This document shows positions 10,853 through 61,671 of a stretch of 64,000 nucleotides of DNA, in pieces (the first letter of the stretch is position 1; every line of letters starts with the position of its first letter). Source of the DNA: a virus; IMG/VR virus record IMGVR_UViG_3300042516_001464, positions 3,812 through 67,811 of that record; one strand, written 5' to 3'. The notes under the pieces are model-generated. The model ran no database searches. It was given only the letters and a program-made list of their open reading frames with translations, and was not told the DNA's origin. The position numbers were made by a program, and so were the translations under genes.

Positions 10853-11707
10853 ATGGCAAAGAGAAAATACAATAGGCCTCAAACAATTTATGAGGAGGAA
10901 ATGAGTCCAGAAGAAAAGTATGGAACATCAAGATTTTTTGAATCATTAATTAGGTCTGATCCAGATTCACAATCAAGTTTTGATTATTCTCAACTTGATG
11001 AGAAGTATCCAATTAAATCTATTGGAGGAAGAATGCAACTTGAAGAGCAAAGGCGCAATGAAAATCCTTTTCTTGAAGAAGACATTGCTTATAGAACAAA
11101 TATCATAAAGCAACGCGAATCAGAACTTGGGCTTAAAAAGGCTGCAAGAGATTTGGATATGTATGAATCGCAAATCAATCGCGAGGACGCAATACTTGAG
11201 CAAATTCCAGTTGCAAGGCAAAAACTATCCGATCTAGATGTTCGTGACCCTAATTTCATAAATAAGGCATACGATATTCAAGAACAGCATCCATTAGCGT
11301 TTGAGAGTGATAAATTTCAAAAGTATATCTTTCAACCAATGCTTAATCGTAATTCGCGTTTGATTAGCCGAAAGCAGGATGGAGTAATAACGCAAGAAGG
11401 GTTATCTAAAGCGATGGCAGAAATTTCAAAATATAACGAACTAATTGACGCTAGGGGCGAGGGGGTTGGTGCTTCAACGGAAGAGGATCGTTATCTTGGG
11501 TATTTGCAAAACCAAATTGACCAATTCTACGCGCAGAGGGGAATGGAGAATCCTAATGCAACTATGCCAATGCAAACACAACAAATGAACCGACCAGAAT
11601 CATTTTCATTTAACACTCCAGAAGAAGCGGAAGAGGCTAAAAGAAATAATATCTTGAAAGTAGGAGATAAAGTAATTATAGGTGGGAAGACATACATTAC
11701 TGAATAA
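10853..11707 (+). CDS. Putative internal virion protein
   Basis: Coiled-coil; C-terminal LKVGDKVIIGGKTY motif; coupled to the giant gene. Confidence 0.5.
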   Translation: MAKRKYNRPQTIYEEEMSPEEKYGTSRFFESLIRSDPDSQSSFDYSQLDEKYPIKSIGGRMQLEEQRRNENPFLEEDIAYRTNIIKQRESELGLKKAARDLDMYESQINREDAILEQIPVARQKLSDLDVRDPNFINKAYDIQEQHPLAFESDKFQKYIFQPMLNRNSRLISRKQDGVITQEGLSKAMAEISKYNELIDARGEGVGASTEEDRYLGYLQNQIDQFYAQRGMENPNATMPMQTQQMNRPESFSFNTPEEAEEAKRNNILKVGDKVIIGGKTYITE

Positions 11708-14700
11708 TGCCTTTCCGACTTTTAGATGAAGAGCCTAAAAAACTCGAAACAGAAATTACGCCTCAACAAACGCCAAGGATTGGGAGCTTTCGTCTTTTGG
11801 AAGACGAGCCAGCATTTGCTCAATCATCGCAACCTGCATACAAGTATGATGCTTCTCGTTTTCGCCCCAAGGGATTAACATCTACAAAATCAACGCAAGA
11901 AGCCCCGGAAGAACAAAGTATCTTCCGTCAAGTAGCAGATATCCCACTTGGCATTGCCCGTGGCGGTGTGACTGGTATCAAGATGATGACTGATATTCTT
12001 GGTGCTGATAATCCAGTATCAAAGTCATTAGCTGGAGTTGAGGGATACATGGCAGATTTGATGTCCGCTCAAGCAAAGGAAGATCAACAAGAGATTTCTC
12101 GCATTATGAAAGATGCCGAGGACAAGGGATTCGGCGAGCAGGTTAAGGCTGGTATTAAAGCGTTCAGCATTGCTCCAGTTGATATCATGTCTCAAGCGTT
12201 GGGAACAATGGCTCCTGTGCTTGCAACTGGTCTTGCTGGAAGCGCAGCAAAACTTGGAGCATTGGGGATTAGAGCGGTTCAAACTGGTGTTGGTGCTGGC
12301 ATGGGTGCTGGCATGATTAAAGGCGAGATTTACAATGAGGTTAAAAACGAACTCATTAATTCTGGAACTCCAGAGGAGCTTGCCGAGAAAGCTGCTGTTG
12401 AAGCGCAATCTTACGGAGGAAAGAACCTAGATCAGATTTTACTTGGAGCAGGACTGGGTGCGGCATCTACATTGGGAGCAGAGCAAATCCTTACGAGGCT
12501 TATAACAAAACAAGGCGTTGCTCCATCTGCTGGTATTATATCTCGCACATTAAAGGGAGGTTTTACAGAAGCTATTCCAGAAGGCGTTCAAGCTGCACAG
12601 GAACAATTGGCAAAGAACGTTGCATTGCAGAGAGAGGGATTTGATGTTGACCCATCCCGTGGTGTTGTTGCTGCCGCTACGATGGAAGCTATTGCTGGCG
12701 CACCATTGGGTGGTCTTGCTGGAGCTGTTGAGCAGCCAGCTAAAGTTAAGACTCTTGAAGAGGAGAAATTTGAGCAGACCAATGAGATTGCAAGGAATGC
12801 TGCTGAAAATGGCGCACCACTTACTGCATCCGCACTTCAAGACAAAGCCGCCGCTAATCTAAATCAAGATGAGCTTGCAAGAAAACTTGAAGAAGAACTT
12901 TCGATTTCTGCCGTTAAACCATCTGTAGCCGCACCTATAGCTATTCCTACAAAAGATGAGTATGTCGCAAGGTATTCGGCTATTGCACAGGCAGCACCAG
13001 AAGAACTTACAAGAGCAGAGCAATCGTTCACAAACGAACTCACTACTGCCGATACAGAAGAGAAACGCATCAATGCACAGAACGCATTAGACGCAATTAA
13101 AGAAGTAAAAGCAGCAGCCGCTGCGCAACCACCAACAACATATGCCACTCAAGAAATCATCCAGCAACAAGGCGTTCGTGAAGAACCTCAAGACAGAACT
13201 CAAGTTGGGGCGACCACAGAAACAGGCGTTAGCGATAGCATACTCGACGCAACGAGAAGCAAAGAAGAAAGGCAAGTAGCCAGAGACATCGTAAGCGAAC
13301 TGCAAGCTGTAGCGAACAATACCGCCACAGGCGAGCAGATTGCCCGTCTATCGATGGAAGGACTCGTAGATGTCCGTAGAGGCCAAGCCATCATTAACGA
13401 AGACGGTGAGGGCATTCTCGCGCAAGCACAAGCCCCATTGCCAAAGCTCACGCCAGAAGCAAGGGCTGCTGAAGTTGAAACTGCCCCAGCTACTCCGACT
13501 CCATCAGAACTTATCATTGGAGAAAAACCGCAAGTTTCTCCGATAGTAGGCGAGCAAGTTGCAGAGGCTACTCCAGCAGAACCAACTGTTAAGGAATCCT
13601 TGACAGTTCAGCCTGCACAAGCTGCACCCGTAGCTGCACCAGTAGAACAAGTAGTCACGCCACCAGTAGAGGTTGCACCAACCATTGCGGAGGCCGCTCC
13701 AGTTGAGCCGATTGCTCTTGCACCAGAAACTGCTGCTGTTGATAGATACACAGAGCTATCTCGCAATCCAAAAATCGGAACAGCTAAAGAACGAAAGGCT
13801 TTAGAACCAACTGTAGCAACAACAACATTCAAAACAAGTCGTGGCAGCACTTATTATATTTTGCCAGATGGGAAGATACGCCGAGACAAATACTCTGGAA
13901 CAACAAGTTACTCTGACCAGATTGCTTTTGTTTCTCCCGAAAACGCAGAAAAAATAAAAGAGATTCGGAATGAATATGAAGAAGGCAAGAATACTTCGGT
14001 TGAAATTACTCCAGAAGTAATCCGTTTTCGATTTAACGAAAAGATCGCAGAAGTTCCAATTGCTTCACAGTCACCGCAAGAAGGGCTTTCTCCCTTTGAA
14101 CTATCTGGTGGAAGATACCCGCATTTAGGTGATCCGGTAGTATCTCCCGCACCAGTCACCGAGCAAGCTGCACCAGCAGAAGCTCCCGCGCCAGAGGGTG
14201 CGCCTGCCCCACAAGTTGAACAAGAAATTGAAGTAGGTGATGAAGCGTCTGTTAATCTCGCTGGAAGAAATGAAACTGTAACCATTGCTCGTATAGAAGA
14301 CATCAACGGGGTTCCAACGGCATACTTTGATTATTTTGGATACAAGTCTCGACCATTAGCTGAAATGCAATTGGTTAAAAAATCAAAACAAAACATAGCA
14401 AAGGCTGAAAGAAAAGCAAAAGAGGCAAAGGCATCTCAAATAGAAATTACTCCACCTAAACCAGAAGACTTTTTTTCAAATGAAGAAATAGCAAGTCTTG
14501 TATCTGGAAAAGCTCCTGATGGATGGAAGTCCGACACATCTACACGCGATGATTTTTTTCTAACAGATACAAATGGGAAGCGTTGGAGTTTTAAGCCACA
14601 GTATGAAAATGGTGAAATTACATCAATTCTTATGCGTGCTGAAGGGCAAGTTACAGGCGTTACAATTACTAAAGCGCCCACTCCAGCAGTATCTGAAGCT

Positions 14701-17700
14701 CCAACTCAGCCAGAGGGCATCGCAGTAGGCAACCGCATCAAGTTAGGCAAGAGTCCACAGACATACACCATTGAAGAAGTAATTCCGCAGACAGCAACAG
14801 AGAGAGATTTGGGCGAGCAGTATTACTCTGTGAAGAACGAACGCACTGGAGAGGTGCAAGTAGTAGAGGCAATGGACATGAAGAAAGTTGGTGGGAAGAG
14901 AGCGCGGAAGATGGCAATTTCAGATGGAACGATTTCATACAATCAACTCCCAAGCAACATCCAGAAAGAAGCCGATTTTGTTCCTAACAAAGAATCAACA
15001 TTGTGGAAGTTGGAGCAAGTATCCGTTGAAGACTTGATGGAGAATAGCCCCGCTGGAATGACTGGAGATATTTCTGAAATTGAAGGCTATGATATAGATT
15101 CATTAATTAAAAGCATTAGGAAAGATGGAGTCAAGCAACCCATCGTGATGGTTCGCAATGCAGATGGATCAATTGATATTGAAGGTAATCATCGAGTATA
15201 TGCTGCGTATGAAGCTGGGCTTGATACAATCCCGGCTTATGTCCTACAAAAACAAGGCATTCTTAAACAGGCAGTCGAAGAGAAGATTTCTAAAACAGCA
15301 TTGATTGATAAAGATGGAAGCATCATTAGCGCACCAGACAAAAATCACGCAATGCTAATGGAGGAGAGCCAGTTTAATTTGGATGCTGGCGAGTATCCTC
15401 CAATGGAGAACTATGGGTTTGTTACAAACTTTGGAAGATTCGTTGGTCAGAAGGAAGCGCAGGAGATCGCTCGTAATTCGCAGCAAGTTATAGGAGGGCA
15501 GCAAATCAGCGGAGAGCTTGTTACTGCAATCAACGAAGAAGAGAGTGCGAATATTTTGAGGCTCAATGTCCAAGGTGCTTCTGGAAACAAATTCAATGAA
15601 GCAGGGTTCAAGAGATTCCCCGGCATTGCTGTTACGAGAACTAATTCTGAAACACTAACATCGCATCCGCTATACAATGCTGCCAAACGATTCAACAATG
15701 TAGAGGCTGCTAAAATCATTGTTGATGAATTTGTAGACGATCAAATGGTGTTTGATGTGTTTACCAACATTGATCCAAACAAGCCAGCGTATATTGTGCC
15801 TGTTCTTAAAGGTGAAGCTGATTCAATGAATATGCTTCCAGTCGCATTGGCTGAAAAACTTTCCAATGCAAGCGGAGTCCCCGTGTGGGGTAACTTGATT
15901 CAAGCAACTTCAGAGCAAAGCACAGGCGCTGGGGTGAATGAAAAGACAGAGATATCAAGGCAATTCATGGGTGAAGCTCCTCCAGCCGGATCGCAGATAA
16001 TTATCGTTGATGACTATCTTGCTACTGGCAGAACAATTGCATCGCTTGAAAACATGACTGGAACAGCATCTTCTGTTGCGACAATAGCTTCTGGAAGATA
16101 CGGAAATCAATATGGCTTAACTACTCAACGAGCAGAAAAACTCCTTGAGAAGGCAGGCATTACAAGAGAGAGATTTTATGAAATATATGGACTACAACCA
16201 GAACAAGCAATCACAGGAATCGAGGCCCAGGCTTACATCCTCAATGGGGCCGCTGGCGAAGGTGGACTCACAAGTAGATTCCCTGTCGAAAAAATTTCAC
16301 CAAGCAATGAAGGAATTAAAAACATTGCGAATGTCCCAGAATCAGTAGTTCTATTTGCTGGTGGTGGGCTTACAGAGCTTGGACTTGTTGGGATTGTAAG
16401 AAATGGATATGTTGTTGAGGCCAATCAACGGATAGCTGAATTCTACGAGGAAGCTCATGGCGTTCCTGTAATTCAAGACTATGTCCAGAATGTAAAGTTT
16501 TATGGTATTAATGGAGGTCATCTACACGCATCCCCCGTTTGCAAAAACTTCTCTACTGCTAAAAACAAACAACAAGTTACAGAGCAAGATAAGATTATTG
16601 ACAGAGAAGCTGCTGGCGCTGTAGCTCAAGCAATTAGGGACATACAACCAAATACTGTTTCTATTGAAAATGTAACTGGATACAAAGATACAGAATCATA
16701 CAATTCCATTATCTCTGCGCTTGAGGAGAATGGTTATATTTATGATGCGAATTTTTACAACGCAAATGATTTTGGAGCGCCAACATCTCGCAAGCGTTTG
16801 ATTGTTAGAGCAGTTAAAAAGGGTGGAGTTCTTCCAGAAATACGCAAGAAAAAGAAAAGAATGTCTTGGTATGATGCCGTTAAGGACATCGTAAATGATT
16901 TGCCGGATCACGATATCAATGCCGCGAGGTATCCAGCCAGAATGATGTCCTACTTGGCTGCAAAGGGAATTGATATTTATAATGTTGATCAACCGCTTTT
17001 GATTAGCGGAACTGATGGCAAAACATTCCGCAATGCAGATCAGCCAGCAATGACATTCTTGGCTACTCCAAGGGCGCTTAATATTATTGCTCTTCCTGGT
17101 GGCATCATTAAGAAGGTCACAGCACGGGCAATGGCAAGAATGACTGGCGTTCCAGATTCATTCCCGCTACCAGCAGATGAGGCTCTTGCAAAAACTATTA
17201 TTGGAAACGGAATTCCTCCTGCGCTTACAAGATCGGTAATTGGCGACTTGATTCAGAAGAATGAAAAGCCAGAAGTTGCCGTTCCAAAAGTAGCAGCTGA
17301 AAAGAATCAATATACATTTGATGCAGCTGAAAAAGAAGTTACAAATTTCTTCGGTGAAATGCCGGAAGGAATTGTTATTGTAAACAATACAACCGATCCA
17401 GACTTGCAATTTAAAGCCGGATACGATGTGAAGACAGGTGAAATTATTATTAACCTTGCATACATCGATAAGAAGGAAAATATCGGAGACATTATCTCTC
17501 ACGAACTTGGGCATTATATCTTTGGTGATCCGCAATTCCGGGCAGACTTCCAAGAGTTTTGGGACATGATGACTCCAGAAGAACAGGCTGAAGCTGATAG
17601 GATTATCAACCAATTTTACAACAACGAGACTAACGAAACCAAAATTGAAGAGAAACAGATTCGCGCATTCATGCAGTTGATCTCTGACTCTAAAGCTCAA

Positions 17701-20700
17701 CCACAATGGAAGCAATTGCTAGATAGCATCAAGCGTTGGATGAACAAATACTTTGGAACTAAATTCCAAACAACAGATAGGACTGCATTGGCTATCCTTT
17801 CTACTGCAATGAATCGCTTTGCAAGCGGGGAGCGAATCATCCGTGAGATTGATTCTGGCGTGCTGAAGATGGCAGCAGAGCCAAAGCGTGAGAAGGTAGC
17901 AGGCAAAGAGCGTGGAGAGATCATCACCACTCCAGAAGGGATTATTAAGCAAACGCAAGAGGTGCTACGAAACAAGTTCTTTGATGGAACGGAAGTTTCA
18001 GATAATGCAACTCAACAAGCGTGGAACTATATAGAGCAGTTGTTGGATATTAAATCCGGCGCGGCCAATGCGCTTGCAGGACAGATTAACGATGTAGTTG
18101 ATCAAGAGACGAATTCTGACTCCAGAATGGGGGCAAGTTTGTTTTCTGTATCTTTGGCTAACTATGCCGCGAAGCTCGCTGCTCAAGGTGACATGACAAT
18201 GCTTCCATACATTATCCGCAGGATCAATCGTATGCCAGTTGATAACCTTGCTGGGGGCAGAAGCGAAGCTGGTGAAGCGTTGAGAGCTGCAAGGGAATAT
18301 CAAATCGATGGATTCAATACGCTCAAGACAGAAGACAAGGCGAAGGTTGAAAGAACAGCAGCTACATTGTTTGGAACTGATAAGCCAAGCAAAGATCAAG
18401 TAAAGGTTGTTGAAGATGCTATTAAGGCTTCCGAGGATGAAACAATTGGTAATCCAGAGGATGTTGCCGCTGAAATTGAGAAGGTTGAGAATAGAACTGG
18501 CAGAAGGGTTGTTGACAAGGTCGAAGGTAAGATCAAGGAATCAACAGAACCAAAAAAAGAAGAGCTTCTTATTTCATTTGAGAATTTAGATGCAGACAAA
18601 AAGATCAAAGGCATCACGCTTAAATACAGCCCACAGAAAGTAAATGTAGTCAAAAACATTCAGAACCTCATCATCGGCAAGATGGTTGATTATCGAAAAG
18701 CACTTGTTAATCAAGGCGCAGGTGGACTTGAATCTACATTCTGGCAGACGATGAGCAGTCTGGAAAACAAGCCCGGACCATTGGGTGAGATTGACCAGGC
18801 TCAAAACAACGAGCTTGCAAGAATTGTTAAGAACACGCTTATCAAACTTGGGCTTCAAGGTGAGCCTAAGAATACAAAAATGACGGACATTGAGAAGGTT
18901 GCGTCCATCTTGAACGAGAATAAGTTGAGTGATGAGAAGAGACTTGAAGCTGATCAACGGATTGTTCAAGAGATTGAGCGTAGAAGGCAGAGTGAACTTG
19001 CATCCGGCTCAAGCCCAGAAGCTGTAAATGCAAAATACGATGTCATTCTCGATGCTTGGAATGAAGCGATGAGCAGGCAGTTGAATATGCCGATTAGCGA
19101 TAATATGCTTCAGCGTTTGCTGAAATCGGAAATAAAACAACGCAATACTCAGATTAGCGAACTCATCAATGAGAATGACGGAAGAGTTGTTGAGGAAGTT
19201 AAGAACGACATTGTTGATTCTATTATTCGCAGAATCTATGGTGTTTCTAAAGAGTCCGAAACAGGAATTGAGATGGATGAGGATTACAGCAATCTTCAGT
19301 CATATCTCAAGCAGACGATCAACAATATGTATGCAACAGCTATCCAGAAGAAGAATGCTGCATACGCAAAGCGTCAAGCTGAGAGAAGCCTCAAAAATAA
19401 TGTTGATGCACAAGCGCAATCAATCATCAATCAACTCTCAACGGAGTTAAGTGATACCCCATCATTCTCGCCGCAAATAGAAAACAAGGTTAAGGTTATT
19501 GTTCAACAAGACTTGAGGCAAAATCCAAACATGGGACGTAAGCAACCATGGACAAGCCAGCTTACAGCAAAGCTCATTGACGCTGGTGTGGACGAGACAC
19601 AGGCTCAAACAATCTCTGAACTAACCTGGAGACAGCATGAGATTAAGAAGATGGATCGTGATCTTAAGGAACTCAAGACAGCAGCTGAAAAAGGATCGCT
19701 TGCCGTTATCATTGATCGAATCAAAACAACGCCATTAGAGAAGCAGCAAGAGCCTAACTGGATGCAAGGCGTGATTCGTGAATACTTGGTTGAAGCCGGA
19801 CTATCTGATAAAGCTGCTGAAACTGCCGCGAAACTATACGAAAGCGTAATCTCTGAAAAGTTCGCAGAAGCGAAACAAAAAGCATTTGAAACAACACTTA
19901 ATAAATCCGCTCCGTGGCAAAACTATCTTTCAAGAAATAGCCGACTTGGCAAGGACGCATTGAAGAGAATTCAAGACGCGATTAGAACTGGAGTTCTTGA
20001 TCCAACGCAAAATGTCGAAAGCATTATTGCAAGAGAGAATGGGTGGTCTGGTTTTACTAAAGAACAATTCCAACGCATTGTTCAATTGGACAATGTTATA
20101 TCCAGTCCAGATACAGACCAAGTTACAAAAGCGGAGGCAATGGACGAGCTTAACAAGATCATCGTTAAGGCGAAGATTCCAGTAAGATTCAAGGATGCCA
20201 TCGGCGCATATTATGTTGGTCAGGCGCTTATGGGTATTCCAACGCTAACCGTTAACATTGCGTCACCTATTGGGTTCTCTGTCAGAAATCTTATCACAGA
20301 TATCGGACGCTATGCGTTTACTGAACCATCGAGAATTCCAATGGCATTTGAAACATTCTTGGATAGTATGAAGTCTTGGTATAACCAAAGCTCATACGCA
20401 TTCAGAAACCAAATCTACATGAATGATGTGGTTGAGTATTTGAATGGTCAGAATGTTCTTCGTGAATTGTTTGACAAAGGAAAAGCTCAATGGGCTAAAG
20501 GTGAGTATGCGAACGGCATGGCAAATATGCTTGTTGGCATGACGCAAATTACTGGTCGAGTTCTGTCGGCTTTGGATCAAGGCGCTATCTCTATGTTGGA
20601 GAATCAAAACATTACGAGATATGCGATGGAGGCAATGAAGCAAAGAAACATTCCGCAATCAAAGCGGAAGGAGATTGCCAACATGATCTTTGATACACGC

Positions 20701-22200
20701 AGAAGGACATATGCAGAAAATGTTGCTGCTGGCATGGAGAAAGATCGCGCTGGTGTGCTGGCTGATTTGGCAGTCAGAAGCGAGATTATCAATGCGCTTT
20801 CTCCAGAAGGAATTGATTTCAAGGATGTATTGGATTCTGCTATTAACGACTCATTGCAATCTGTTGGTAGAAACAAGACAATTAATGTTGATGGAATTGT
20901 TAAGGAGAATGAAAGGCTATCTGATGCGGGTGTGCTGTCTTATCTTCCAATTGAATTCCTCCAAAAGATAGCATCCGGCGCGGCAAGTAGTGGGCCATTG
21001 ATGCAGGTATTCTCCAAGATGGTTTATGGATTTGCTCTTGTCCCAGCCAGAGTATTCCATACAACAGCCTGGTATTCTCCATATGGATTCATTCGACTTG
21101 GTATTGATGCTTATAAAAAGAATAAGGGCGAAGATTCGCCATATGCGATGAGTTTGCAAACAGACCTGCAATACAAGCAAAGGCTTACAGACGCTATCGC
21201 CGGATCAATTGTCATGCTTGGACTCGCCGCTCTTGCAAGTGGATCAGCTGATGATGACGAAGAGAAGAAGTTTAAGATTGTTATTACAGGTAATGGTCCA
21301 AGTTATTCAGCAGACAGGCAGTTCTTTGATGCGTGGCATAAAAAGTATAAGCCATACAGCATTAATATTGTTATGGGCGATACCGTTATTCCAATCAACA
21401 TTGGACGAGGCGGCGAGGCATTGTTCTTCCCAATTATGCTTGCTGGCGCATTGGACGATTGGGGAATTAAAAAGAAACTTAATCTTACCAAAAAAGAACC
21501 AGAAGACTTGAACCTCGCTGTGGAAGTGTTGGGGTCATCATTCTTTGCCTTGGCTCAAAGAGGGCCATATGCTGCGTTTACCAAACCATTGTTTGATGCA
21601 TCTAAAGAAGGCAAGATTACAGAAGAACTTGTTAGCCAAGCCGGGTTCTTTGGTAAAACATTTGTTCCGATATTAGGTTCATCTCTTTCAAGGAATATTT
21701 CTGACTTTATTAACGATCCAATTGATAGGTCTTCATTGGAGGGAGCTATCTACGCTAATACACCTATTGTTGGTCCGTGGATGGGCGCTAAAGCTCTTAA
21801 TGCATTGGGGCAACCAATTAGGGCGGACGATTGGGGAGATAGGCTATTTAAGCTCGGAGTGCCAGTTGTATTCTCATTCCCTAAAAATACTCCAGAGAAT
21901 GAACTCAATGAGCTTATCCTTCAGAAAGGAAGTGGACCATCAATCCCAACAAGAGCCAATGCGCAGAAACGATTTGGTGATGTTCTGACAGATAAAGAGT
22001 TTGAAACATATGTGCGTGAATATGGACGAGTTGTGTCTGACAAGATGTTCAAGAACAGGAAACAACTTGAAAAGATGTCTGTCAAAGATTACGATGATGA
22101 ACTTCAAAGATATGTCACGGGATACTCAATCGATGGAATTAAAATTACTGGGGCATCAGATATGGCAGTTCGTGCTGTAAGAAGGATGCGAGGCGAATGA
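11707..22200 (+). CDS. Giant polyvalent internal virion protein (ParB-like, PRTase, C5 DNA MTase, zincin domains)
   Basis: EGNHRVYAA (ParB-like); IIIVDDYLATGRT (PRTase); LFAGGG/SPVC/ENV/RKRL/GNGIPP (C5-MTase); SHELGH (HExxH). Confidence 0.85.
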   Translation: MPFRLLDEEPKKLETEITPQQTPRIGSFRLLEDEPAFAQSSQPAYKYDASRFRPKGLTSTKSTQEAPEEQSIFRQVADIPLGIARGGVTGIKMMTDILGADNPVSKSLAGVEGYMADLMSAQAKEDQQEISRIMKDAEDKGFGEQVKAGIKAFSIAPVDIMSQALGTMAPVLATGLAGSAAKLGALGIRAVQTGVGAGMGAGMIKGEIYNEVKNELINSGTPEELAEKAAVEAQSYGGKNLDQILLGAGLGAASTLGAEQILTRLITKQGVAPSAGIISRTLKGGFTEAIPEGVQAAQEQLAKNVALQREGFDVDPSRGVVAAATMEAIAGAPLGGLAGAVEQPAKVKTLEEEKFEQTNEIARNAAENGAPLTASALQDKAAANLNQDELARKLEEELSISAVKPSVAAPIAIPTKDEYVARYSAIAQAAPEELTRAEQSFTNELTTADTEEKRINAQNALDAIKEVKAAAAAQPPTTYATQEIIQQQGVREEPQDRTQVGATTETGVSDSILDATRSKEERQVARDIVSELQAVANNTATGEQIARLSMEGLVDVRRGQAIINEDGEGILAQAQAPLPKLTPEARAAEVETAPATPTPSELIIGEKPQVSPIVGEQVAEATPAEPTVKESLTVQPAQAAPVAAPVEQVVTPPVEVAPTIAEAAPVEPIALAPETAAVDRYTELSRNPKIGTAKERKALEPTVATTTFKTSRGSTYYILPDGKIRRDKYSGTTSYSDQIAFVSPENAEKIKEIRNEYEEGKNTSVEITPEVIRFRFNEKIAEVPIASQSPQEGLSPFELSGGRYPHLGDPVVSPAPVTEQAAPAEAPAPEGAPAPQVEQEIEVGDEASVNLAGRNETVTIARIEDINGVPTAYFDYFGYKSRPLAEMQLVKKSKQNIAKAERKAKEAKASQIEITPPKPEDFFSNEEIASLVSGKAPDGWKSDTSTRDDFFLTDTNGKRWSFKPQYENGEITSILMRAEGQVTGVTITKAPTPAVSEAPTQPEGIAVGNRIKLGKSPQTYTIEEVIPQTATERDLGEQYYSVKNERTGEVQVVEAMDMKKVGGKRARKMAISDGTISYNQLPSNIQKEADFVPNKESTLWKLEQVSVEDLMENSPAGMTGDISEIEGYDIDSLIKSIRKDGVKQPIVMVRNADGSIDIEGNHRVYAAYEAGLDTIPAYVLQKQGILKQAVEEKISKTALIDKDGSIISAPDKNHAMLMEESQFNLDAGEYPPMENYGFVTNFGRFVGQKEAQEIARNSQQVIGGQQISGELVTAINEEESANILRLNVQGASGNKFNEAGFKRFPGIAVTRTNSETLTSHPLYNAAKRFNNVEAAKIIVDEFVDDQMVFDVFTNIDPNKPAYIVPVLKGEADSMNMLPVALAEKLSNASGVPVWGNLIQATSEQSTGAGVNEKTEISRQFMGEAPPAGSQIIIVDDYLATGRTIASLENMTGTASSVATIASGRYGNQYGLTTQRAEKLLEKAGITRERFYEIYGLQPEQAITGIEAQAYILNGAAGEGGLTSRFPVEKISPSNEGIKNIANVPESVVLFAGGGLTELGLVGIVRNGYVVEANQRIAEFYEEAHGVPVIQDYVQNVKFYGINGGHLHASPVCKNFSTAKNKQQVTEQDKIIDREAAGAVAQAIRDIQPNTVSIENVTGYKDTESYNSIISALEENGYIYDANFYNANDFGAPTSRKRLIVRAVKKGGVLPEIRKKKKRMSWYDAVKDIVNDLPDHDINAARYPARMMSYLAAKGIDIYNVDQPLLISGTDGKTFRNADQPAMTFLATPRALNIIALPGGIIKKVTARAMARMTGVPDSFPLPADEALAKTIIGNGIPPALTRSVIGDLIQKNEKPEVAVPKVAAEKNQYTFDAAEKEVTNFFGEMPEGIVIVNNTTDPDLQFKAGYDVKTGEIIINLAYIDKKENIGDIISHELGHYIFGDPQFRADFQEFWDMMTPEEQAEADRIINQFYNNETNETKIEEKQIRAFMQLISDSKAQPQWKQLLDSIKRWMNKYFGTKFQTTDRTALAILSTAMNRFASGERIIREIDSGVLKMAAEPKREKVAGKERGEIITTPEGIIKQTQEVLRNKFFDGTEVSDNATQQAWNYIEQLLDIKSGAANALAGQINDVVDQETNSDSRMGASLFSVSLANYAAKLAAQGDMTMLPYIIRRINRMPVDNLAGGRSEAGEALRAAREYQIDGFNTLKTEDKAKVERTAATLFGTDKPSKDQVKVVEDAIKASEDETIGNPEDVAAEIEKVENRTGRRVVDKVEGKIKESTEPKKEELLISFENLDADKKIKGITLKYSPQKVNVVKNIQNLIIGKMVDYRKALVNQGAGGLESTFWQTMSSLENKPGPLGEIDQAQNNELARIVKNTLIKLGLQGEPKNTKMTDIEKVASILNENKLSDEKRLEADQRIVQEIERRRQSELASGSSPEAVNAKYDVILDAWNEAMSRQLNMPISDNMLQRLLKSEIKQRNTQISELINENDGRVVEEVKNDIVDSIIRRIYGVSKESETGIEMDEDYSNLQSYLKQTINNMYATAIQKKNAAYAKRQAERSLKNNVDAQAQSIINQLSTELSDTPSFSPQIENKVKVIVQQDLRQNPNMGRKQPWTSQLTAKLIDAGVDETQAQTISELTWRQHEIKKMDRDLKELKTAAEKGSLAVIIDRIKTTPLEKQQEPNWMQGVIREYLVEAGLSDKAAETAAKLYESVISEKFAEAKQKAFETTLNKSAPWQNYLSRNSRLGKDALKRIQDAIRTGVLDPTQNVESIIARENGWSGFTKEQFQRIVQLDNVISSPDTDQVTKAEAMDELNKIIVKAKIPVRFKDAIGAYYVGQALMGIPTLTVNIASPIGFSVRNLITDIGRYAFTEPSRIPMAFETFLDSMKSWYNQSSYAFRNQIYMNDVVEYLNGQNVLRELFDKGKAQWAKGEYANGMANMLVGMTQITGRVLSALDQGAISMLENQNITRYAMEAMKQRNIPQSKRKEIANMIFDTRRRTYAENVAAGMEKDRAGVLADLAVRSEIINALSPEGIDFKDVLDSAINDSLQSVGRNKTINVDGIVKENERLSDAGVLSYLPIEFLQKIASGAASSGPLMQVFSKMVYGFALVPARVFHTTAWYSPYGFIRLGIDAYKKNKGEDSPYAMSLQTDLQYKQRLTDAIAGSIVMLGLAALASGSADDDEEKKFKIVITGNGPSYSADRQFFDAWHKKYKPYSINIVMGDTVIPINIGRGGEALFFPIMLAGALDDWGIKKKLNLTKKEPEDLNLAVEVLGSSFFALAQRGPYAAFTKPLFDASKEGKITEELVSQAGFFGKTFVPILGSSLSRNISDFINDPIDRSSLEGAIYANTPIVGPWMGAKALNALGQPIRADDWGDRLFKLGVPVVFSFPKNTPENELNELILQKGSGPSIPTRANAQKRFGDVLTDKEFETYVREYGRVVSDKMFKNRKQLEKMSVKDYDDELQRYVTGYSIDGIKITGASDMAVRAVRRMRGE

Positions 22201-43622: not shown

Positions 43623-45913
43623 AACCATGCACAATAATAATACCATCGTCCCTTACATCAGTCTTTGTTCCGGCTATGAAGGCATCGGAATTGGACTCCA
43701 CCGCTGTATCCGAAATCTTCGCTGCATCTCTTACTGCGAGAGGGAATCATTCGCCATCGCAAACTTGGTTGCGAAAATGGAAAAAGGATTACTGGACTCA
43801 GCTCCTGTTTTCACAGATGTCACAAATTTCCCATGGGGAGACTTCACTCCATACATGGCTAAAGGAATTTTGTCCTTTGGATGGCCGTGTCAACCAGTCT
43901 CAAGCGCAGGAAAGCGAAAAGCAACAGAAGATGAGCGATGGTTATTCGACATCATCGCAGATGGAATTTCAATTATGCAACCCGGAATGCTCTTCGCAGA
44001 AAATGTCGAAGGACTCTTATCAGCAAAAATGCCAGACGGATCAAGCGTCTTCGGACACTGCATCGAGAGATTGGAGAAGCTACATTATAAAGTTGAGGCA
44101 GGAATATTCAGTGCGAGCGAAACAGGCGCTCCGCACCAACGCAAAAGAATCTTTATCCTGGCCTACCGCGAGGAGCAGGGATTGGAAGGACTCAGGGAAC
44201 TTGAGTCAAACTTCCTATGGAATGACATTGGGCAGGATGGCGCAGCAGAATGCGAATTGGCCTACGCCAGCGGTGATGGATACAACGGGAGGCAGCTACA
44301 AGACGGAATGGGTAGATGGAAGGGCGGTCAGCTACCACAATCACAAAGAGGAGAATCCGGTAGCTTACGGGGCCAAACTTTCGGATGCAGTGGCGAATTG
44401 GCCTACAGCGAGAACATCGGATTGCAAGAATCCATCAATACAGAGAATGAAAGTTGGATCGGATGGTGGAAACAAAATCCAGCTGCGGGAAGCAGTAGCG
44501 AAGGAGGAGATGAGTTGTTCCAATACGGAGGAATTAGTGTGGTTAACCCCAACGACAACACAAATACAGAGGCGGGATATGCAGAAGCGGATAGACTATC
44601 GGGAGAGCATAGGCCGGAAGTATGTGCCGGGTTCATTGGAGGAACAGATGCAGCATCACTCAAACGAACCAGTGAATTGGCCGACACCTACAACAGCGGA
44701 AGCTGGGAAGATATCAAACCAGCCGAATTACGGACAGATATGCTTGAGCAATCATCCGGCAATTGTTGGAACTCCCAATCGTCCGAAGGGGATCAAAGAT
44801 GGCCTTCTCGCCCAGGACAAACACAATACGCATGGGAACCACCCAGAACTATTGGAAAAATGGAAAATGGTTCCTGGTTGGGGCGACAAATATCAAGTCA
44901 GCAATCACGGAAGAATGCAGTCCAAGGCGAGTGGGGATTGGAGAGAGATGACCTTAACAATCAAGGACACGGGATATCTGAATGCGAGCTTGAGGCACGA
45001 AGGAAAACAGAAAAAAGTAACGATCCACATTCTGGTTGCGATGCTGTTTCTTGGGGAAAGGCCAAGTGGATTGGTGATAAATCACATAGACGGCAACAAG
45101 TTGAACAACTGCATTTGGAATCTGGAATATGTGACAGCAGCAGAGAACAACCGCCATGCTCAAATGATGGGTTTGAATTGCACGAAAGGAGAATCCAATC
45201 CAATGGCGAAGCTCAATACAGACCAGGTAGAGGAGATACTACAATCAACGGAATCGCAGTTAGTAATAGCGAAGCGGATGAATGTATGCCAACAAACCAT
45301 ATCGTTGATTCGTTCTGGAAAAAGGTGGAAAGGTTTGAAGCAAGAGTCATGGCCGACACCAACGATGCAGGACGGCAAGCAGGGAGGGATAACTCCATCT
45401 CAGATGGTGGAAGGAGCTGGTCACACGGGACTGCTTCACATTGCAGCAATAAAGCAAGAGCAATGGAGGACACCATCTGTAGCGGAAGCAAAGAATCAAA
45501 ATACATCAACACAAGTTTATCTTCAGAACCAAGTCGGAGCTACTCCGAAACAATGGGCGACTCCTCAAGCGAGCGACCACGTGGAGGGACGCAGGACGGA
45601 CTTGGACAGCAATCAGAAATGTTTGGGGAGAGACATGAAGAAGTGGGCGACTCCGAGTGCGTTCGACTTCAAGGATGGGGAGAGCAGGGAACAATGGGAG
45701 AAGAGAGCTGCATTCCAAGCGGAGAAGGGCGTGAGTCTTCAACTTCCGCTCAAGAGCCAATCGATACAGGAGGCGGGAACGATGAGTCCCAGTTCAGCAA
45801 AATTGAATGCGAGATGGGTCGAAACTCTCATGTCGCTTCCAATGGGATGGGTATGCCCGTCATGTCCAGCCTCTGTGATTCAGAACTGGAAGAAATTTAT
45901 GAGTGGATGGTGA
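43619..45913 (+). CDS. C5 methyltransferase beta frame (WPTP repeats, motif IX-like) with an embedded NUMOD4-HNH endonuclease
   Basis: Nine W(P/L/R/A)T(P/A) repeats; LNARWVETLMSLPMGW; YQVSNHGR...HIDGNKLNN...ENNRH. Confidence 0.75.
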   Translation: MKPCTIIIPSSLTSVFVPAMKASELDSTAVSEIFAASLTARGNHSPSQTWLRKWKKDYWTQLLFSQMSQISHGETSLHTWLKEFCPLDGRVNQSQAQESEKQQKMSDGYSTSSQMEFQLCNPECSSQKMSKDSYQQKCQTDQASSDTASRDWRSYIIKLRQEYSVRAKQALRTNAKESLSWPTARSRDWKDSGNLSQTSYGMTLGRMAQQNANWPTPAVMDTTGGSYKTEWVDGRAVSYHNHKEENPVAYGAKLSDAVANWPTARTSDCKNPSIQRMKVGSDGGNKIQLREAVAKEEMSCSNTEELVWLTPTTTQIQRRDMQKRIDYRESIGRKYVPGSLEEQMQHHSNEPVNWPTPTTAEAGKISNQPNYGQICLSNHPAIVGTPNRPKGIKDGLLAQDKHNTHGNHPELLEKWKMVPGWGDKYQVSNHGRMQSKASGDWREMTLTIKDTGYLNASLRHEGKQKKVTIHILVAMLFLGERPSGLVINHIDGNKLNNCIWNLEYVTAAENNRHAQMMGLNCTKGESNPMAKLNTDQVEEILQSTESQLVIAKRMNVCQQTISLIRSGKRWKGLKQESWPTPTMQDGKQGGITPSQMVEGAGHTGLLHIAAIKQEQWRTPSVAEAKNQNTSTQVYLQNQVGATPKQWATPQASDHVEGRRTDLDSNQKCLGRDMKKWATPSAFDFKDGESREQWEKRAAFQAEKGVSLQLPLKSQSIQEAGTMSPSSAKLNARWVETLMSLPMGWVCPSCPASVIQNWKKFMSGW

Positions 45914-46014
45914 AGTGTGAGAATCGCACGGATGAATTACGCTTGCTGGGTAATGGCGTGGTTCCGGCAACAGCAACGAAAGCATTCATAACTTTATTCA
46001 ACAAACTCAAATGA
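43627..46014 (+). CDS. C5 cytosine DNA methyltransferase, alpha frame (motifs I, IV, VI, VIII, X)
   Basis: SLCSGYEG, GWPCQPVS, AENVEGL, APHQRKRIFI and C-terminal LRLLGNGVVP. Confidence 0.85.
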   Translation: MHNNNTIVPYISLCSGYEGIGIGLHRCIRNLRCISYCERESFAIANLVAKMEKGLLDSAPVFTDVTNFPWGDFTPYMAKGILSFGWPCQPVSSAGKRKATEDERWLFDIIADGISIMQPGMLFAENVEGLLSAKMPDGSSVFGHCIERLEKLHYKVEAGIFSASETGAPHQRKRIFILAYREEQGLEGLRELESNFLWNDIGQDGAAECELAYASGDGYNGRQLQDGMGRWKGGQLPQSQRGESGSLRGQTFGCSGELAYSENIGLQESINTENESWIGWWKQNPAAGSSSEGGDELFQYGGISVVNPNDNTNTEAGYAEADRLSGEHRPEVCAGFIGGTDAASLKRTSELADTYNSGSWEDIKPAELRTDMLEQSSGNCWNSQSSEGDQRWPSRPGQTQYAWEPPRTIGKMENGSWLGRQISSQQSRKNAVQGEWGLERDDLNNQGHGISECELEARRKTEKSNDPHSGCDAVSWGKAKWIGDKSHRRQQVEQLHLESGICDSSREQPPCSNDGFELHERRIQSNGEAQYRPGRGDTTINGIAVSNSEADECMPTNHIVDSFWKKVERFEARVMADTNDAGRQAGRDNSISDGGRSWSHGTASHCSNKARAMEDTICSGSKESKYINTSLSSEPSRSYSETMGDSSSERPRGGTQDGLGQQSEMFGERHEEVGDSECVRLQGWGEQGTMGEESCIPSGEGRESSTSAQEPIDTGGGNDESQFSKIECEMGRNSHVASNGMGMPVMSSLCDSELEEIYEWMVKCENRTDELRLLGNGVVPATATKAFITLFNKLK
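44858..45340 (+). mobile_element. NUMOD4-HNH-HTH homing endonuclease inserted in frame in the beta ORF
   Basis: WKMVPGWGDKYQVSNHGR, HILVAMLFLG, INHIDGNKLNN, GESNPMAKL...TISLIRSGKRW. Confidence 0.75.
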
Positions 46015-56779: not shown

Positions 56780-56975
56780 GCAACACGATACAACGCAAGC
56801 GGCACAGCGCAGCGGCGCAGCACAGCGGAGCGGAGCGGATGACATAAGAGCGGAGGGACGGCGCAGCGGCACAGCACAGCACAGCGGAGGGTGGCACAGC
56901 GTAGGGGTGGCACAGCGTAGAGCGGAGGGCGGCAGGGGTGACGGGGCGGGGGGGTACGCAGCCGGTGCGTGGCAC
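56780..56975 (+). repeat. GC-rich, purine-skewed degenerate repeats (GCACAGCG / GCGGAG)
   Basis: Multiple gcacagc copies in a non-coding region. Confidence 0.75.
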
Positions 56976-57023
56976 GGAAACTATGCCCCAAATAAAAATA
57001 TAAAAATATAAAAATAAAAAACT

Positions 57024-57097
57024 TACCCTCGGCTGGGATCGAACCAGCAACCATCGAATTAGAAGTACGATACTCTATCCTATTGAGCTACGAGGGT
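57024..57097 (-). tRNA. tRNA-Arg (UCU), no encoded CCA
   Basis: Cloverleaf: acceptor ACCCTCG/CGAGGGT, D arm GCTC/GAGT, anticodon loop CT-TCT-AA, T arm GCTGG-TTCGATC-CCAGC. Confidence 0.9.
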
Positions 57098-58932: not shown

Positions 58933-59528
58933 ATTTTTTGTGTGGTTTGTGAAAGTAGCCTTGAACTAAATCGCCGTTTCTACGATATATGTAGCCATTA
59001 AAAAGTTCTTTGATTGCTCGGAAAAGGTCTTTGGTTAGGCATTTTTTATGAATGCGAACAGGCGTGTCTTCTACTTTTGCTGGAGATTTAAGCTCCATAT
59101 CGCATACAGCGCATTTCATTTCTTCACCTTCCCTGCTGTTGTAACATAAAACCTTATGTTTTGTCCATCTGTTAAATCTTTTTTCAAGAAAACATGAGCG
59201 GATTCAACTATTGTCCCCTCATCATTTGACCTATTTATGACATTCTTAAGAGCAGTGTTGATGTCTTCCACTATCATTTCAAAAAGCGCAGAGTTCTCAT
59301 TATGCTTTTCTGTATTGATCCATTCAGTTAAAACTGCATGACACTTAACATTTTGCTCCATACTATTTCTTCTTCCAGTCAATTTCGTCGTAGTTGTCCC
59401 AATACTTCTTTGTGATTGGTCTTGGTTTATCGCCCTTGCCAGCTCCATCAGTTTTGGATTTCAACGCCTTGATTCTGGCTTTCCTATCATCGTCGTGTTT
59501 TAGTTTCATTGTGGTTTTTTTAAAGTTT

Positions 59529-60345
59529 CGCAGGAACGAGTATGCATCCTCTTTTCAGGTGTTGGGTTGCCAAGGTTACGCCTCCTACCCCGCTATGCAG
59601 CGGATCGGTGACTCGGTAATATACCTCCCAACCTCGATGTGGCAGTGGCTAGAAATCCCTAACCTAACCGCTCATCCGGCAATTATTACACCTGCCTGCT
59701 ATATTAGTCTCCTCAACTATAGCGTCCTATAGTCTCATCTGTTAATTCAGATTCGGGCGATGCCAGAACAGGTCTGACAGAGCGGTAACCGGAAGTAGTT
59801 TTGATACGGGTTGGCGCGTTACTACCAATCATGGTTTCAGTTTCGGCCCCATGTAATGCCGATAGGCTGTTGATGCCAGTTAAACAAGGTTGCTTCAAAG
59901 CTCGCAACTTAGCTGCATGACTCCATGCTTCCCGTAAAGTTTACTACCAAGACCTTTCATTACCTTTCGGTGAAAAGTTCCCTACAGAGTAAATGTTGAT
60001 TCTAGACTCATTGCATTGTCTTCTGTCGCGGATATAGCTTTGCAGGCTTATGCGCTTGGTAGTTTGCAATCCAGTTAATGTTAGCTCTTGTCGCATCCAT
60101 GGGGCTTACGAGACGAGGGCATGAACCCCGTTTCCATTAACCAGATTAAATATATCAAAGATCATTACCACTGATTCGCATCGCTGGCTCAATGGTCAAG
60201 CCTCTGTGGATTCCCTGCCTCTGGCAGATAATAAAATTGGGGCTGTCTCTCCAGCCATGTCACGCCTTACACCAGTTAATGGAACTGGCAACTAAGGTGG
60301 GCGTTCACCGACTTATGGAAATGTGGTCGTTCAGCGACTCCAAGG
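59529..60345 (-). ncRNA. Array of candidate structured ncRNAs, including an ~400-nt module at 59529-59935
   Basis: Successive self-closing stems with G-U pairs and a GAAA loop on the minus strand; no credible ORF. Confidence 0.6.
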
Positions 60346-60399
60346 AAATAGTTTATTTGTCATGTATTTAATTTATTTTATTTTAAAAAAAAGTAAAGC

Positions 60400-61671
60400 C
60401 TATTGTTCAGCAACTCCCTCCTCCAATCGAGCCATATGCTTATGGAACCTCAATGGGATTATTGGCGTTGTTCCGTTCCTATTGTGTGTGATGTGAAGAA
60501 CATATGCGTATGGATCATCTGACTCTTCCGCTGGCATGATCTTTGTGAGGCTATCGCAGTCCATCTCAAATGTCCGGCTCTCGCGGATCGTGTTATCCTC
60601 GTTGAGTTGAGCAAGCAGAACCACACACACATTCAACTCTTTCGCTACGATCTTCGTCATGCGGCTGATCTCTGCTACTTGGCGTTCCCTGCTTTCCTTT
60701 AGATTGCTTGGAGTCACAAGTTGCGCGTAGTCCAACATAATAATCTCACACTTGTTCTCAGCAACTAACCTTCTTGCCCTGGCTCTAAATTGATTCACCG
60801 TCATTGAGGCTTCATCAACAATGTGGATTGGAGCCTTCATTCCCTGCGCCATGAAATTTGATACCTTGGCGAAGTCTGCTCTGCTGAGTTTCCCATCACG
60901 GAGATCATTCATTCCAATCTGTGCATGGCAGGATGTGATCTTGTCTACGAGTTCACCAGCGCCCATCTCAAGCGATATGATCCCAATTGGAACTTTCTTA
61001 TCTATGGCTGGAGTAGTAACCATCTGAAGTGCTGCTGTGGTCTTACCCTGCTTGGCGCGTCCAGCTACAATGTGAACCGTCTGAGGCCGGAATCCTCGCG
61101 TTGACATATTCCACTTTGGGAAACATGAATCATGTCCTCGATTGATTGCGCCTCCAGTTCTTGCCGCCTCTTCCCATGCCGTGATCCTGCTGTTGAATAC
61201 TTCCGCAATGTGAACAGATTCGGTTTTTGTTGTCATCATTCCGGTTATCTCACGGCTTGCGGCTTCCTTGATATCTTCTGGGTCTTGAGTCCTATCAAGC
61301 GCATCTGCCGCCATTCTCTTCGCAGCAAAGTGTATTTTTCTACGAAGGTAGCAATCGGATATTGTTTTGAAGTATTCATCCCAGTTAGCGGATGAGTAAA
61401 CAACAGTGTAGATTTGCGTGATGTAGTGTTCCCCGCCAATTCCCTCAAGAAGTCCGGCTGCTTGCAACTCAGAGGTTATTGTTAACAAGTCTATAGGTTT
61501 CTTGTCAAAATACATCTTAACCAATGTAGCCCAGATGTCTTGGTGTGCTGGAAGGTTAAAGTGTTCCAGTGTAATAATATCGGCAATTTTGCCAATGATT
61601 CGCGTGTCTTGCATGCAAGAGCAAAGCAAGCCTTGCTCCGCGCCCATATCGGACGGTAGTTGTTTTTCCAT
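60400..61671 (-). CDS. dnaB: Replicative DNA helicase
   Basis: AEQGLL N-terminal domain, Walker A AGRAKQGKT, ISLEM, LDYAQL, LAQLN, NRNG. Confidence 0.92.
   Translation of the reverse strand: MEKQLPSDMGAEQGLLCSCMQDTRIIGKIADIITLEHFNLPAHQDIWATLVKMYFDKKPIDLLTITSELQAAGLLEGIGGEHYITQIYTVVYSSANWDEYFKTISDCYLRRKIHFAAKRMAADALDRTQDPEDIKEAASREITGMMTTKTESVHIAEVFNSRITAWEEAARTGGAINRGHDSCFPKWNMSTRGFRPQTVHIVAGRAKQGKTTAALQMVTTPAIDKKVPIGIISLEMGAGELVDKITSCHAQIGMNDLRDGKLSRADFAKVSNFMAQGMKAPIHIVDEASMTVNQFRARARRLVAENKCEIIMLDYAQLVTPSNLKESRERQVAEISRMTKIVAKELNVCVVLLAQLNEDNTIRESRTFEMDCDSLTKIMPAEESDDPYAYVLHITHNRNGTTPIIPLRFHKHMARLEEGVAEQ

Follow-up and report, generated by a model that had tools for sequence, protein, structure and literature searches.

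In the leaders of ribosomal RNA (rRNA) operons, as in the nut sites of phage lambda, a hairpin is accompanied by a boxA sequence that is bound by NusB/NusE. Clusters of transfer RNA (tRNA) genes in phages are usually put down to codon usage or to tRNA-targeting defences, and the non-tRNA RNAs that accompany them have gone without explanation since RNAC and RNAD of phage T4. These two are small stable non-tRNA RNAs of unknown role located in the tRNA cluster of T4 (PMC3014915). GOLLD and ROOL, structured RNAs borne by phages and also of unknown function, are found next to tRNA arrays (PMC12286853). Here we describe a phage locus for which the T4 tRNA cluster with RNAC and RNAD is the nearest known thing and, as far as its leader is concerned, the boxA antitermination of rRNA operons. 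The locus lies in a stretch of 64,000 nucleotides (nt), hereafter the window (positions 3,812 to 67,811 of IMG/VR virus record IMGVR_UViG_3300042516_001464), which makes up most of a 67.8-kilobase (kb) viral contig bearing terminal repeats. It is an untranslated array of about 890 nt (60399-59510, minus strand), the longest non-coding stretch in the window, that runs from the stop codon of a dnaB gene to an open reading frame (ORF) of 48 codons. Along the minus strand the order is M1, M2, a boxA-like motif, M3, M4, M5, M6 and M7/8. A preliminary description of the first half (M1-M4, 404 bases) had proposed four self-contained RNA modules; the array runs past the coordinates given there, down to 59510. 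We conclude that M1-M4 are most likely four separate genes for small structured RNAs, and that M2, M3, M4, M5 and M7/8 are members of conserved RNA families found across many uncultivated, mostly lake, phages.

Structure and conservation of the modules

The folding energies of M1, M2, M3 and M4 are by themselves modestly unusual (z-scores of -1.31, -1.98, -1.90 and -2.91; 20, 5, 10 and 0 of 200 shuffles, respectively, fold as well or better). Since they are just modestly better than those of the shuffles, thermodynamics would not carry the claim, and it is the comparative data that carry the case. All the stems listed in the preliminary description were found on the minus strand of 59942-60345 by reading the sequence, and the module limits given there lie 1-3 nt from those set by mosaic breakpoints and family alignments. 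As had been described, the stretch is built of self-contained, stem-closed modules, and the family alignments of M1-M4 show helices conserved through compensatory changes.

The module M4 (59944..60062, minus strand) is a four-way junction built, in this order, of an 8-base-pair (bp) closing stem, a short arm P2, a long arm P3-P5, a linker AGGGA and an arm of variable length, P6, that abuts the closing stem. It holds CUACCAAG/CUUGGUAG with an ACC-GAAA-GGU tip, which is the variable end of the last arm and, by eye, is compensatorily replaced in relatives. Exact patterns for M3 and M4 gave no match, and the working degenerate patterns of both were built once the loci L079, L100 and L108 were known; the gapped pattern for M4 was made from the window and the diverged copy in L079 (76% identical). 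With it, M4 was found in 20 viral contigs of 4.5-134 kb. In the alignment of the 20 distinct sequences (A3), 99.5% of the cells are paired, against 34-44% when the partners are slid by 1-3 columns, and 9 of the 33 pairs change on both sides; the observed values were reached by none of 500 shuffles.

In both M4 and M5 (59805..59936, minus strand) the closing stem and three arms stand in tRNA order, which is a resemblance only, and the last arm abutting the closing stem gives a stack of 12-13 bp; M2 and M3 are built otherwise. In M5 the closing stem measures 6 bp in the window and 7 bp in most relatives. Inside it come first a D-like arm, then an arm whose loop reads GAGCUUUGAA, a variable region that includes a pseudoknot and, against the closing stem, a 5-bp T-like arm, with the helix CCAAG/CUUGG replaced by UUGGU/GCCAA among relatives. 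The module is single copy in each genome. A 22-mer of M5 is present in 42 viral contigs, 36 of them without dnaB within the flank covered, and in the alignment of 32 distinct sequences (A2) 98.6% of the cells are paired, compared with 19-38% when slid, with changes on both sides in 11 of 36 pairs. The relatives of M5 also differ through insertions or deletions of single bases.

The closing stem of M3 (60068..60147, minus strand), UCUGGUUAAUG/CAUUAACUGGA, has the 11 bp originally noted, including two G-U pairs, and can be extended to 13 bp around two or three small helices. Its degenerate pattern found five other viral loci. In the alignment of the six sequences (A5), 93.7% of the cells are paired versus 35-51% with the partners slid, and both sides change in 13 of 24 pairs, eight of these in the closing stem. 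The inner helix GGGGUU/AGCCCC suggested before did not fare as well (75% of cells paired, no compensatory pair), and a local hairpin that shares the G-run of GGGGUU fits the alignment with 86.7% of cells paired and two compensatory pairs; the pseudoknot suggested for this module is thus no more than a possibility. M2 (60167..60232, minus strand) consists of two hairpins, an extended CUGCC-AGA-GGCAG and ACCAUUGA...UCAGUGGU. A gapped pattern located it in 28 viral contigs, with 13 distinct sequences; all 19 predicted pairs are intact in them, and four show changes on both sides. M1 (60238..60345, minus strand) is a leader segment followed by the hairpins CCAGUU/AACUGG (60288-60283 / 60277-60272) and GGCUG-GAGAGA-CAGCC (60256-60241), the latter also returned by a terminator scan. 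It was found in five sequences alone (the window, L012, L002, L006 and L010), where both partners have changed in two of the five pairs of the GGCUG hairpin (alignment A7).

Beyond these four and M5, the array continues with M6 (59705..59801, minus strand), which follows M5 in the window and precedes it, with 97% identity, in L022, and with M7/8 (59530..59700, minus strand). The latter is a large RNA of about 130-170 nt in which a variable interior is enclosed by the helices GCAGG/CCUGC and CAGGUG/CACCUG; these closing helices covary, and in ten sequences both partners have changed in 8 of 20 predicted pairs (alignment A8). In the closest relative (L012:1890-2620) the interior of M7/8 houses a G+C-rich insertion of about 730 nt with two or three small ORFs, one of them rich in CxxC pairs, placed like an ORF in a peripheral loop of an intron. 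The string CUGAUGAG, seen in some relatives of M7/8, was reminiscent of a hammerhead; at that place the window has another sequence, and no hammerhead model matched.

The kind of pairing also bears on the nature of the molecule. G-U or U-G pairs are frequent (pair 6-20 of M2 in 13 of 13 sequences, pair 94-155 of M4 in 12 of 20), and so many conserved G-U pairs on this strand argue for a minus-strand RNA over a DNA structure, since the corresponding bases would fail to pair on the opposite strand or in a cruciform. A DNA-level element, such as a replication origin or a packaging or recombination site with inverted repeats acting in DNA, might be thought of for the longest non-coding stretch of the window, beside dnaB. 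However, iterons and direct repeats are absent, G+C content across the array is 0.42-0.49 with no A+T-rich block that could serve for unwinding, and in other phages the modules lie far from replication genes, all of which renders this alternative highly improbable. The only repeat detected in the array was a single tandem run (19-nt TTTAT), with no direct-repeat family, so that the modules must be regarded as mutually unrelated.

The stretch had been described as non-coding, and this is supported. There is no ORF of more than 64 codons in 59510-60399, the frames there have no Pfam match, and a stop-free frame (any of six) is present in just 5 of 20 M4 and 2 of 6 M3 sequences, a test that says nothing about M1 and M2, which are short, or about M5 and M7/8. 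Short ATG/TTG frames do exist, for example one of 50 codons (60096-59944) in which, by eye, one change from the window to L012 is synonymous, and they might be very small protein genes. Yet this frame runs from inside M3 into M4, modules that also occur apart; together with the few open frames in the M3 and M4 families, the indels of M5 and the lack of Pfam matches, this leaves small proteins as a hardly credible option. Searches by similarity were likewise negative: blastn of the region against GenBank phages gave no match, and in the scans with Rfam 15, of the window at gathering score and of 59300-60500 at E up to 10, the array matched no family, the only hits being chance-level ones to RMST_5, Vax2os1_2 and a 37-nt piece of DUF2693 over the boxA-like spacer. 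The covariance-model scan recommended for the modules at the outset therefore assigned none of them to a family, and their structures were borne out by comparison instead.

Modules as independent cassettes

The gene upstream of the array, whose stop codon abuts it, codes for a dnaB-type replicative helicase (60400..61671, minus strand; Pfam DnaB 7e-23, DnaB_C 8.4e-48) that is about 30% identical to Ban of phage P1 and about 30% identical to any GenBank phage helicase. Close relatives with DnaB 87-96% identical are nine viral contigs and one metagenome contig; a DnaB alignment scan gave two loci in metagenome contigs, one of them a duplicate, and the same nine loci in viral contigs. In these relatives the dnaB-proximal non-coding stretch measures between some 500 nt (L010) and some 1620 nt (L012) and is a patchwork of blocks 76-98% identical to blocks of the window, with sharp breakpoints. 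M1, M2, M3+M4, M5 and M6 are present or absent independently among the ten: M2 stands in place of M1 in L003, L005, L007, L008 and L009, and the two are together in the window alone; M3+M4 are restricted to the window and L012; M5 is missing from L010, and M6 from L007 and L009. Genuine tRNA genes, tRNA-Ala in L010 and tRNA-Met in L002, take the place of modules after the same spacers.

The modules recur in other phages under different arrangements. In a second phage group the array comes after an ORF and faces a convergent gene, with the orders boxA-M6-M9-M5 (L022), boxA-M5-M9-M7/8 (L023), boxA-M7/8-M5-M9-M2 (L026) and boxA-other-M5 (L029), and in a third group M2 is found alone ahead of a convergent gene. 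Along these lines, contigs assembled from RNA libraries (four runs, four studies) hold module pieces with module-sharp ends. In one of 151 nt (X19), M2 and the start of the boxA-like motif are followed at once by M4, the 95 nt with M3 being absent; another goes from M1 to M5/M6 through 228 unrelated letters; and M2 has unlike flanks in the X19 and X20 contigs, with ends at 60155/60157 and 60226-60231. The shares in these runs were small, and uncovered stretches and differences in depth (such as the depth of 35 of the M4 piece in X16) were not used as evidence. Both the mosaic of presence and absence and the permuted orders demonstrate the independent shuffling among phages that the preliminary description had proposed to look for: every module evolves as a cassette of its own, sharply delimited. 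A single large RNA of the GOLLD type was ruled out, as the order of the modules permutes and modules occur singly. Genome contigs gave no lead to a host: a 19-mer of M5 had four matches, three of them by chance in G+C-rich coding DNA and the fourth in L067. The latter is a 52-kb phage-like contig in an archaeal metagenome-assembled genome, with the ORF end of the second group, a boxA-like motif, M5 and M9, and is most likely a mis-binned phage contig.

Outside the close relatives, M3 and M4 are carried by A+T-rich phages, in what we call sister arrays, and here the families of the array sit co-oriented among genes for tRNAs and transfer-messenger RNA (tmRNA). Specifically, tRNA or tmRNA genes were detected by ARAGORN at up to 1.2 kb from M4 in 17 of 20 loci, Rfam adds a tmRNA in two more (19 of 20), and all of them share the strand of M4. 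Rfam, run on 18 M4 loci, detected a tmRNA in 13 (L098, L099, L100, L102-L105, L107, L109-L111, L114 and L115). These phage tmRNA genes usually have tRNA-Tyr and tRNA-Glu after them, and in the seven loci with ARAGORN tmRNA calls the tag peptides end in ALAA. Matches of about 120 nt to the tRNA model in L097 (852-973) and L113 (1388-1506) indicate tRNA genes with long inserts. The unit in L107 is composed of tRNA-Ala, M4 about 5 nt after it, further modules, tmRNA, tRNA-Tyr, tRNA-Glu and a terminator-like hairpin. No ORF of more than 85 codons lies between its promoter and the terminator-like site, and the short frames overlap RNA genes; by its predicted signals it is an operon of RNA genes only, laid out in the manner of an rRNA operon. 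The likeness to a tRNA array pointed out in the preliminary description is thus literal, because relatives hold real tRNA and tmRNA genes in the same arrays.

The arrangements just described also bear on three other explanations. The first is a cis-acting untranslated leader, the folds of which would regulate a downstream operon of small ORFs or the stability of the dnaB message, with no release of the RNAs. In the window and close relatives the array does stand between co-oriented genes, with the end of M7/8 only 20 nt before the 48-codon ORF (59363..59509, minus strand), the first coding sequence past the array (84-92% in relatives by tblastn). Moreover, M2 is often the last module before a convergent gene, where it could protect a 3' end. 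Nevertheless, the modules recur reordered, by unrelated genes and in RNA-only operons with no ORF to regulate, and the second phage group has M7/8 without the 48-codon ORF, all of which makes a purely cis-acting leader unlikely.

The same mobility could be the property of the modules themselves, were they self-cleaving ribozymes or small mobile RNA elements that insert in tRNA/RNA islands. Sharp limits and movement between unrelated phage backbones would fit, and one sister array does contain a group I intron (L108:1943-2169). On the other hand, no ribozyme or intron model matched the window at gathering score or 59300-60500 at E up to 10, so that the ribozymes mentioned in the preliminary description found no counterpart in Rfam. 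Neither the module junctions nor the array as a whole show repeats or duplications, and no endonuclease or transposase gene is attached. We consider this origin of the shuffling distinctly unlikely.

Finally, the modules could be tRNA genes in decay and scars left by recombination in what was once a tRNA array, devoid of present function. The tRNAs filling the same slots in relatives and the tRNA-like order of the helices in M4 and M5 point in this direction, as does a stretch at the M5/M6 border that aligns, by eye, with the 3' end of the tRNA-Met of L002. However, the modules are 76-98% conserved across phages with unrelated flanks, and their helices are kept through compensatory changes with 94-99.5% of cells paired. 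This is strong purifying selection rather than decay, and decay is very unlikely.

Leader signals, orphan abiF RNA and a proposed role

A putative promoter region is located at the start of the array (60370..60409, minus strand) on the basis of consensus matches. A promoter scan gave TGAACA-18-TAAAAT at 60409-60380 (9 of 12 matches), and reading by eye gives the alternative TTTACT-16-TAAATT at 60397-60370, where relatives keep TTTACT-16-TATACT. Further on, the spacer between M2 and M3 contains the boxA-like motif UGAUCUUUGAUA (60153..60164, minus strand). In the window, GATCTTTGATA agrees at 9 of 11 positions with GYTCTTTAANA, the gamma-proteobacterial boxA consensus quoted by Baniulyte et al. 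(PMC5725501), which may not be that of the host, and the form in L007, GCTCTTTGATA, agrees at 10 of 11 with this same consensus. The motif immediately precedes M3 in seven of seven loci, and in relaxed form it is found upstream on the array strand in all 21 M4 loci and in 34 of 42 M5 loci, with no occurrence on the other strand or downstream in 97 kb for the latter. Position and strand are therefore kept in the M3, M4 and M5 loci, in keeping with the boxA resemblance noticed originally.

Several observations touch on this motif. In A+T-rich phages a conserved leader hairpin module, GUUGGUUCCCGAUGAGCCAA...AAAUCGGA, lies between a consensus promoter and the boxA-like motif (L079:945-1000, and also L100, L102, L104, L107 and L108), a place that corresponds to that of the boxB hairpin in rRNA leaders. 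In L104, L107 and L108 the boxA-like motif comes after promoter and leader hairpin, and in the last two the top sigma-70 match in the locus (11 of 12) is just upstream of the hairpin, followed by the boxA-like motif and the modules. The invariant 10-nt loop of M5, GAGCUUUGAA (59896-59887, arm P3), repeats the spacer motif GAUCUUUGA(U/A) at 60163-60154 and includes a 7-nt string of anticodon-loop shape; it could be a displayed copy of the candidate protein-binding site of the spacer. The DUF2693 RNA model, over its first 33 positions, can be aligned to the boxA-like spacer plus the beginning of M3 (60127-60163, minus strand; 15.1 bits, E 3.7), and the 5' end of that family may hold the same leader motif as the array.

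A glimpse at what such RNAs might do comes from the sister arrays. The abiF RNA (RF03085, gathering score 37) was detected with 49.6 bits in L096, 5 nt upstream of M4, and with 44.4 bits in L116, about 400 nt downstream of M3 and on the same strand. In L079, L100, L102, L104 and L107, abiF-like 5' and 3' halves can be seen by eye, unscored by Rfam, around an insert of 40-60 nt. No Abi_2 protein was found among the six flanking ORFs scanned in sister arrays. RNA with abiF motifs has been described to bind and neutralise the AbiF abortive-infection toxin in the manner of a type III antitoxin (bioRxiv 10.1101/2025.04.15.648962), and a phage escape from ToxIN via RNA mimicry has been reported (PMC3475682). 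Because of these two precedents, an orphan abiF RNA in a phage array would most simply be a counter-defence decoy. The decoy or anti-defence role raised in the preliminary description thus has circumstantial evidence in its favour in the sister arrays, and for the modules of the window it holds by association only, because none of them matches abiF.

Taking all this together, we regard as probable, with appreciable room for doubt, that the locus is a co-transcribed and boxA-protected array of stem-closed small-RNA genes with processing similar to that of tRNA precursors, and with trans decoys as its possible products. One long untranslated transcript would start from the promoter at the dnaB stop codon or by read-through out of dnaB. 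The boxA-like motif would recruit the host NusB/NusE antitermination complex, so that Rho would fail to stop a ribosome-free transcript, as happens in rRNA operons. The terminal helices of 8-13 bp, stacked to 12-13 bp in M4 and M5 in the way of a tRNA acceptor/T-arm, may guide excision, and host tRNA-processing and RNase E-type enzymes would presumably cut stable small RNAs out at the A/U-rich spacers. Once released, and here we speculate by analogy with abiF, the RNAs might work in trans, binding proteins as decoys or antidotes to the RNA-targeting defences of the host.

A number of points weigh against this proposal. Transcription, processing and function are all inferred from sequence. The RNA-library contigs show arrangements and are no proof of transcription, as they are assemblies that may derive from DNA carry-over. 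The boxA-like motif of the window departs from the consensus at 2 of 11 positions, and 19 of the 28 M2 loci have no motif upstream. ARAGORN found no tRNA in the array, the nearest being a tRNA-Arg 2.4 kb off (57024-57097), and Pfam, run on the 74 ORFs of the window, revealed no Ro60, RtcB, reverse transcriptase, Abi_2 or other RNA-handling protein. No module of the window matches abiF or any other Rfam family at E up to 10. As regards the individual modules, M1 is the weakest of the first four, with five sequences and two covarying pairs, and M2 is highly conserved and varies little. Besides, the families were gathered with patterns of fixed sequence, which makes conservation look higher and narrows the diversity, and since their members are related the shuffle controls overstate significance; conservation and shuffle statistics are for these reasons optimistic.

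A bolder version would be an anti-defence island of RNA cassettes, in which each module is the decoy or antidote for a different host RNA-binding effector and is swapped among tRNA/tmRNA islands, in a way similar to the exchange of protein anti-defence genes between phages. The tRNA-like closing stems would then have two uses, stability and processing by the tRNA enzymes of the host. Based as it is on the abiF analogy, we see this version as possible and rather doubtful. Leaving decoys aside, what the locus offers is a set of well-supported RNA families and a natural example of modular shuffling of RNA genes. Together with its relatives, it defines at least four to five undescribed structured-RNA families (M2, M3, M4, M5 and M7/8) with clear covariation, sharp limits and wide distribution, which behave as exchangeable cassettes in RNA-only units resembling rRNA operons. 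The orphan antitoxin-type RNA alongside turns into a testable idea the notion that phages may carry arrays of RNA antidotes. In the open-access literature we came upon no account of these RNA families or of non-tRNA RNA genes being shuffled like cassettes. The 8,495 structured-RNA candidates that a 2023 survey predicted from IMG/VR and left unnamed (PMC10690425) may already include the families of the array anonymously; six contig identifiers were absent from the six files searched of the nine in its supplement.

Regarding the wider setting, the public runs containing this stretch of DNA are lake or freshwater metagenomes, 15 DNA runs having at least half of its sampled words. Just downstream of the tRNA-Arg there is a pyrimidine-rich block of about 180 nt (56810-56990, minus strand), of up to 68% G+C and with strong strand skew, built of degenerate CCGCTGTGC or CTCCGCT-like repeats. 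Similar repeats, CCTCCGTG, come after M2 in the third phage group (e.g., L068). Elsewhere in the window, an ORF of 3497 codons (11707-22200, plus strand) combines a C5 cytosine methylase domain with a ParB N-terminal domain, and a second methylase-domain ORF lies at 43627-46014.

Comparison with described systems

The modules fail membership in several described classes (tRNA, known Rfam ribozymes or introns, abiF, GOLLD/ROOL and repeat-type antitoxins or CRISPR-like arrays), and it is in partial resemblances that the comparison is instructive. M4 and M5 recall tRNAs by their closing stem with three arms in the same order, the 12-13-bp stack and the setting within tRNA arrays. They differ in that neither ARAGORN nor the Rfam tRNA and tmRNA models recognise them, their arms are larger, conserved D- and T-loop sequences are absent (by eye) and no CCA is encoded. 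The tRNA-like domain of tmRNA and bacterial Y RNAs are other cases of tRNA-like RNAs. GOLLD and ROOL share the neighbourhood of tRNA arrays, but each is one large RNA, in contrast to several small independent RNAs of permuting order that have no Rfam match. With abiF and type III antitoxins the connection is through the sister arrays, which have abiF-motif RNA and no recognisable AbiF gene; the modules of the window, on the contrary, do not match abiF and are single-copy and mutually unrelated instead of tandem repeats.

As for the leader, the rRNA operons and the nut sites of lambda provide the closest parallel, a hairpin and then a short U-rich motif near the 5' end of what is predicted to be a long untranslated structured transcript. 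The array differs in lacking rRNA and, in one phage group, in the overlap of the motif with the stop codon of the upstream ORF. Lastly, what the array has in common with the RNAC and RNAD genes of T4 is the co-location and co-orientation of non-tRNA RNA genes with tRNA or tmRNA genes, as seen in 19 of 20 loci of the M4 family and in the arrays of L002 and L010. Unlike the T4 cluster, the array of the window has no tRNA, and it has many unrelated modules instead of two, cassettes that are exchanged among unrelated phages and a boxA-like leader.

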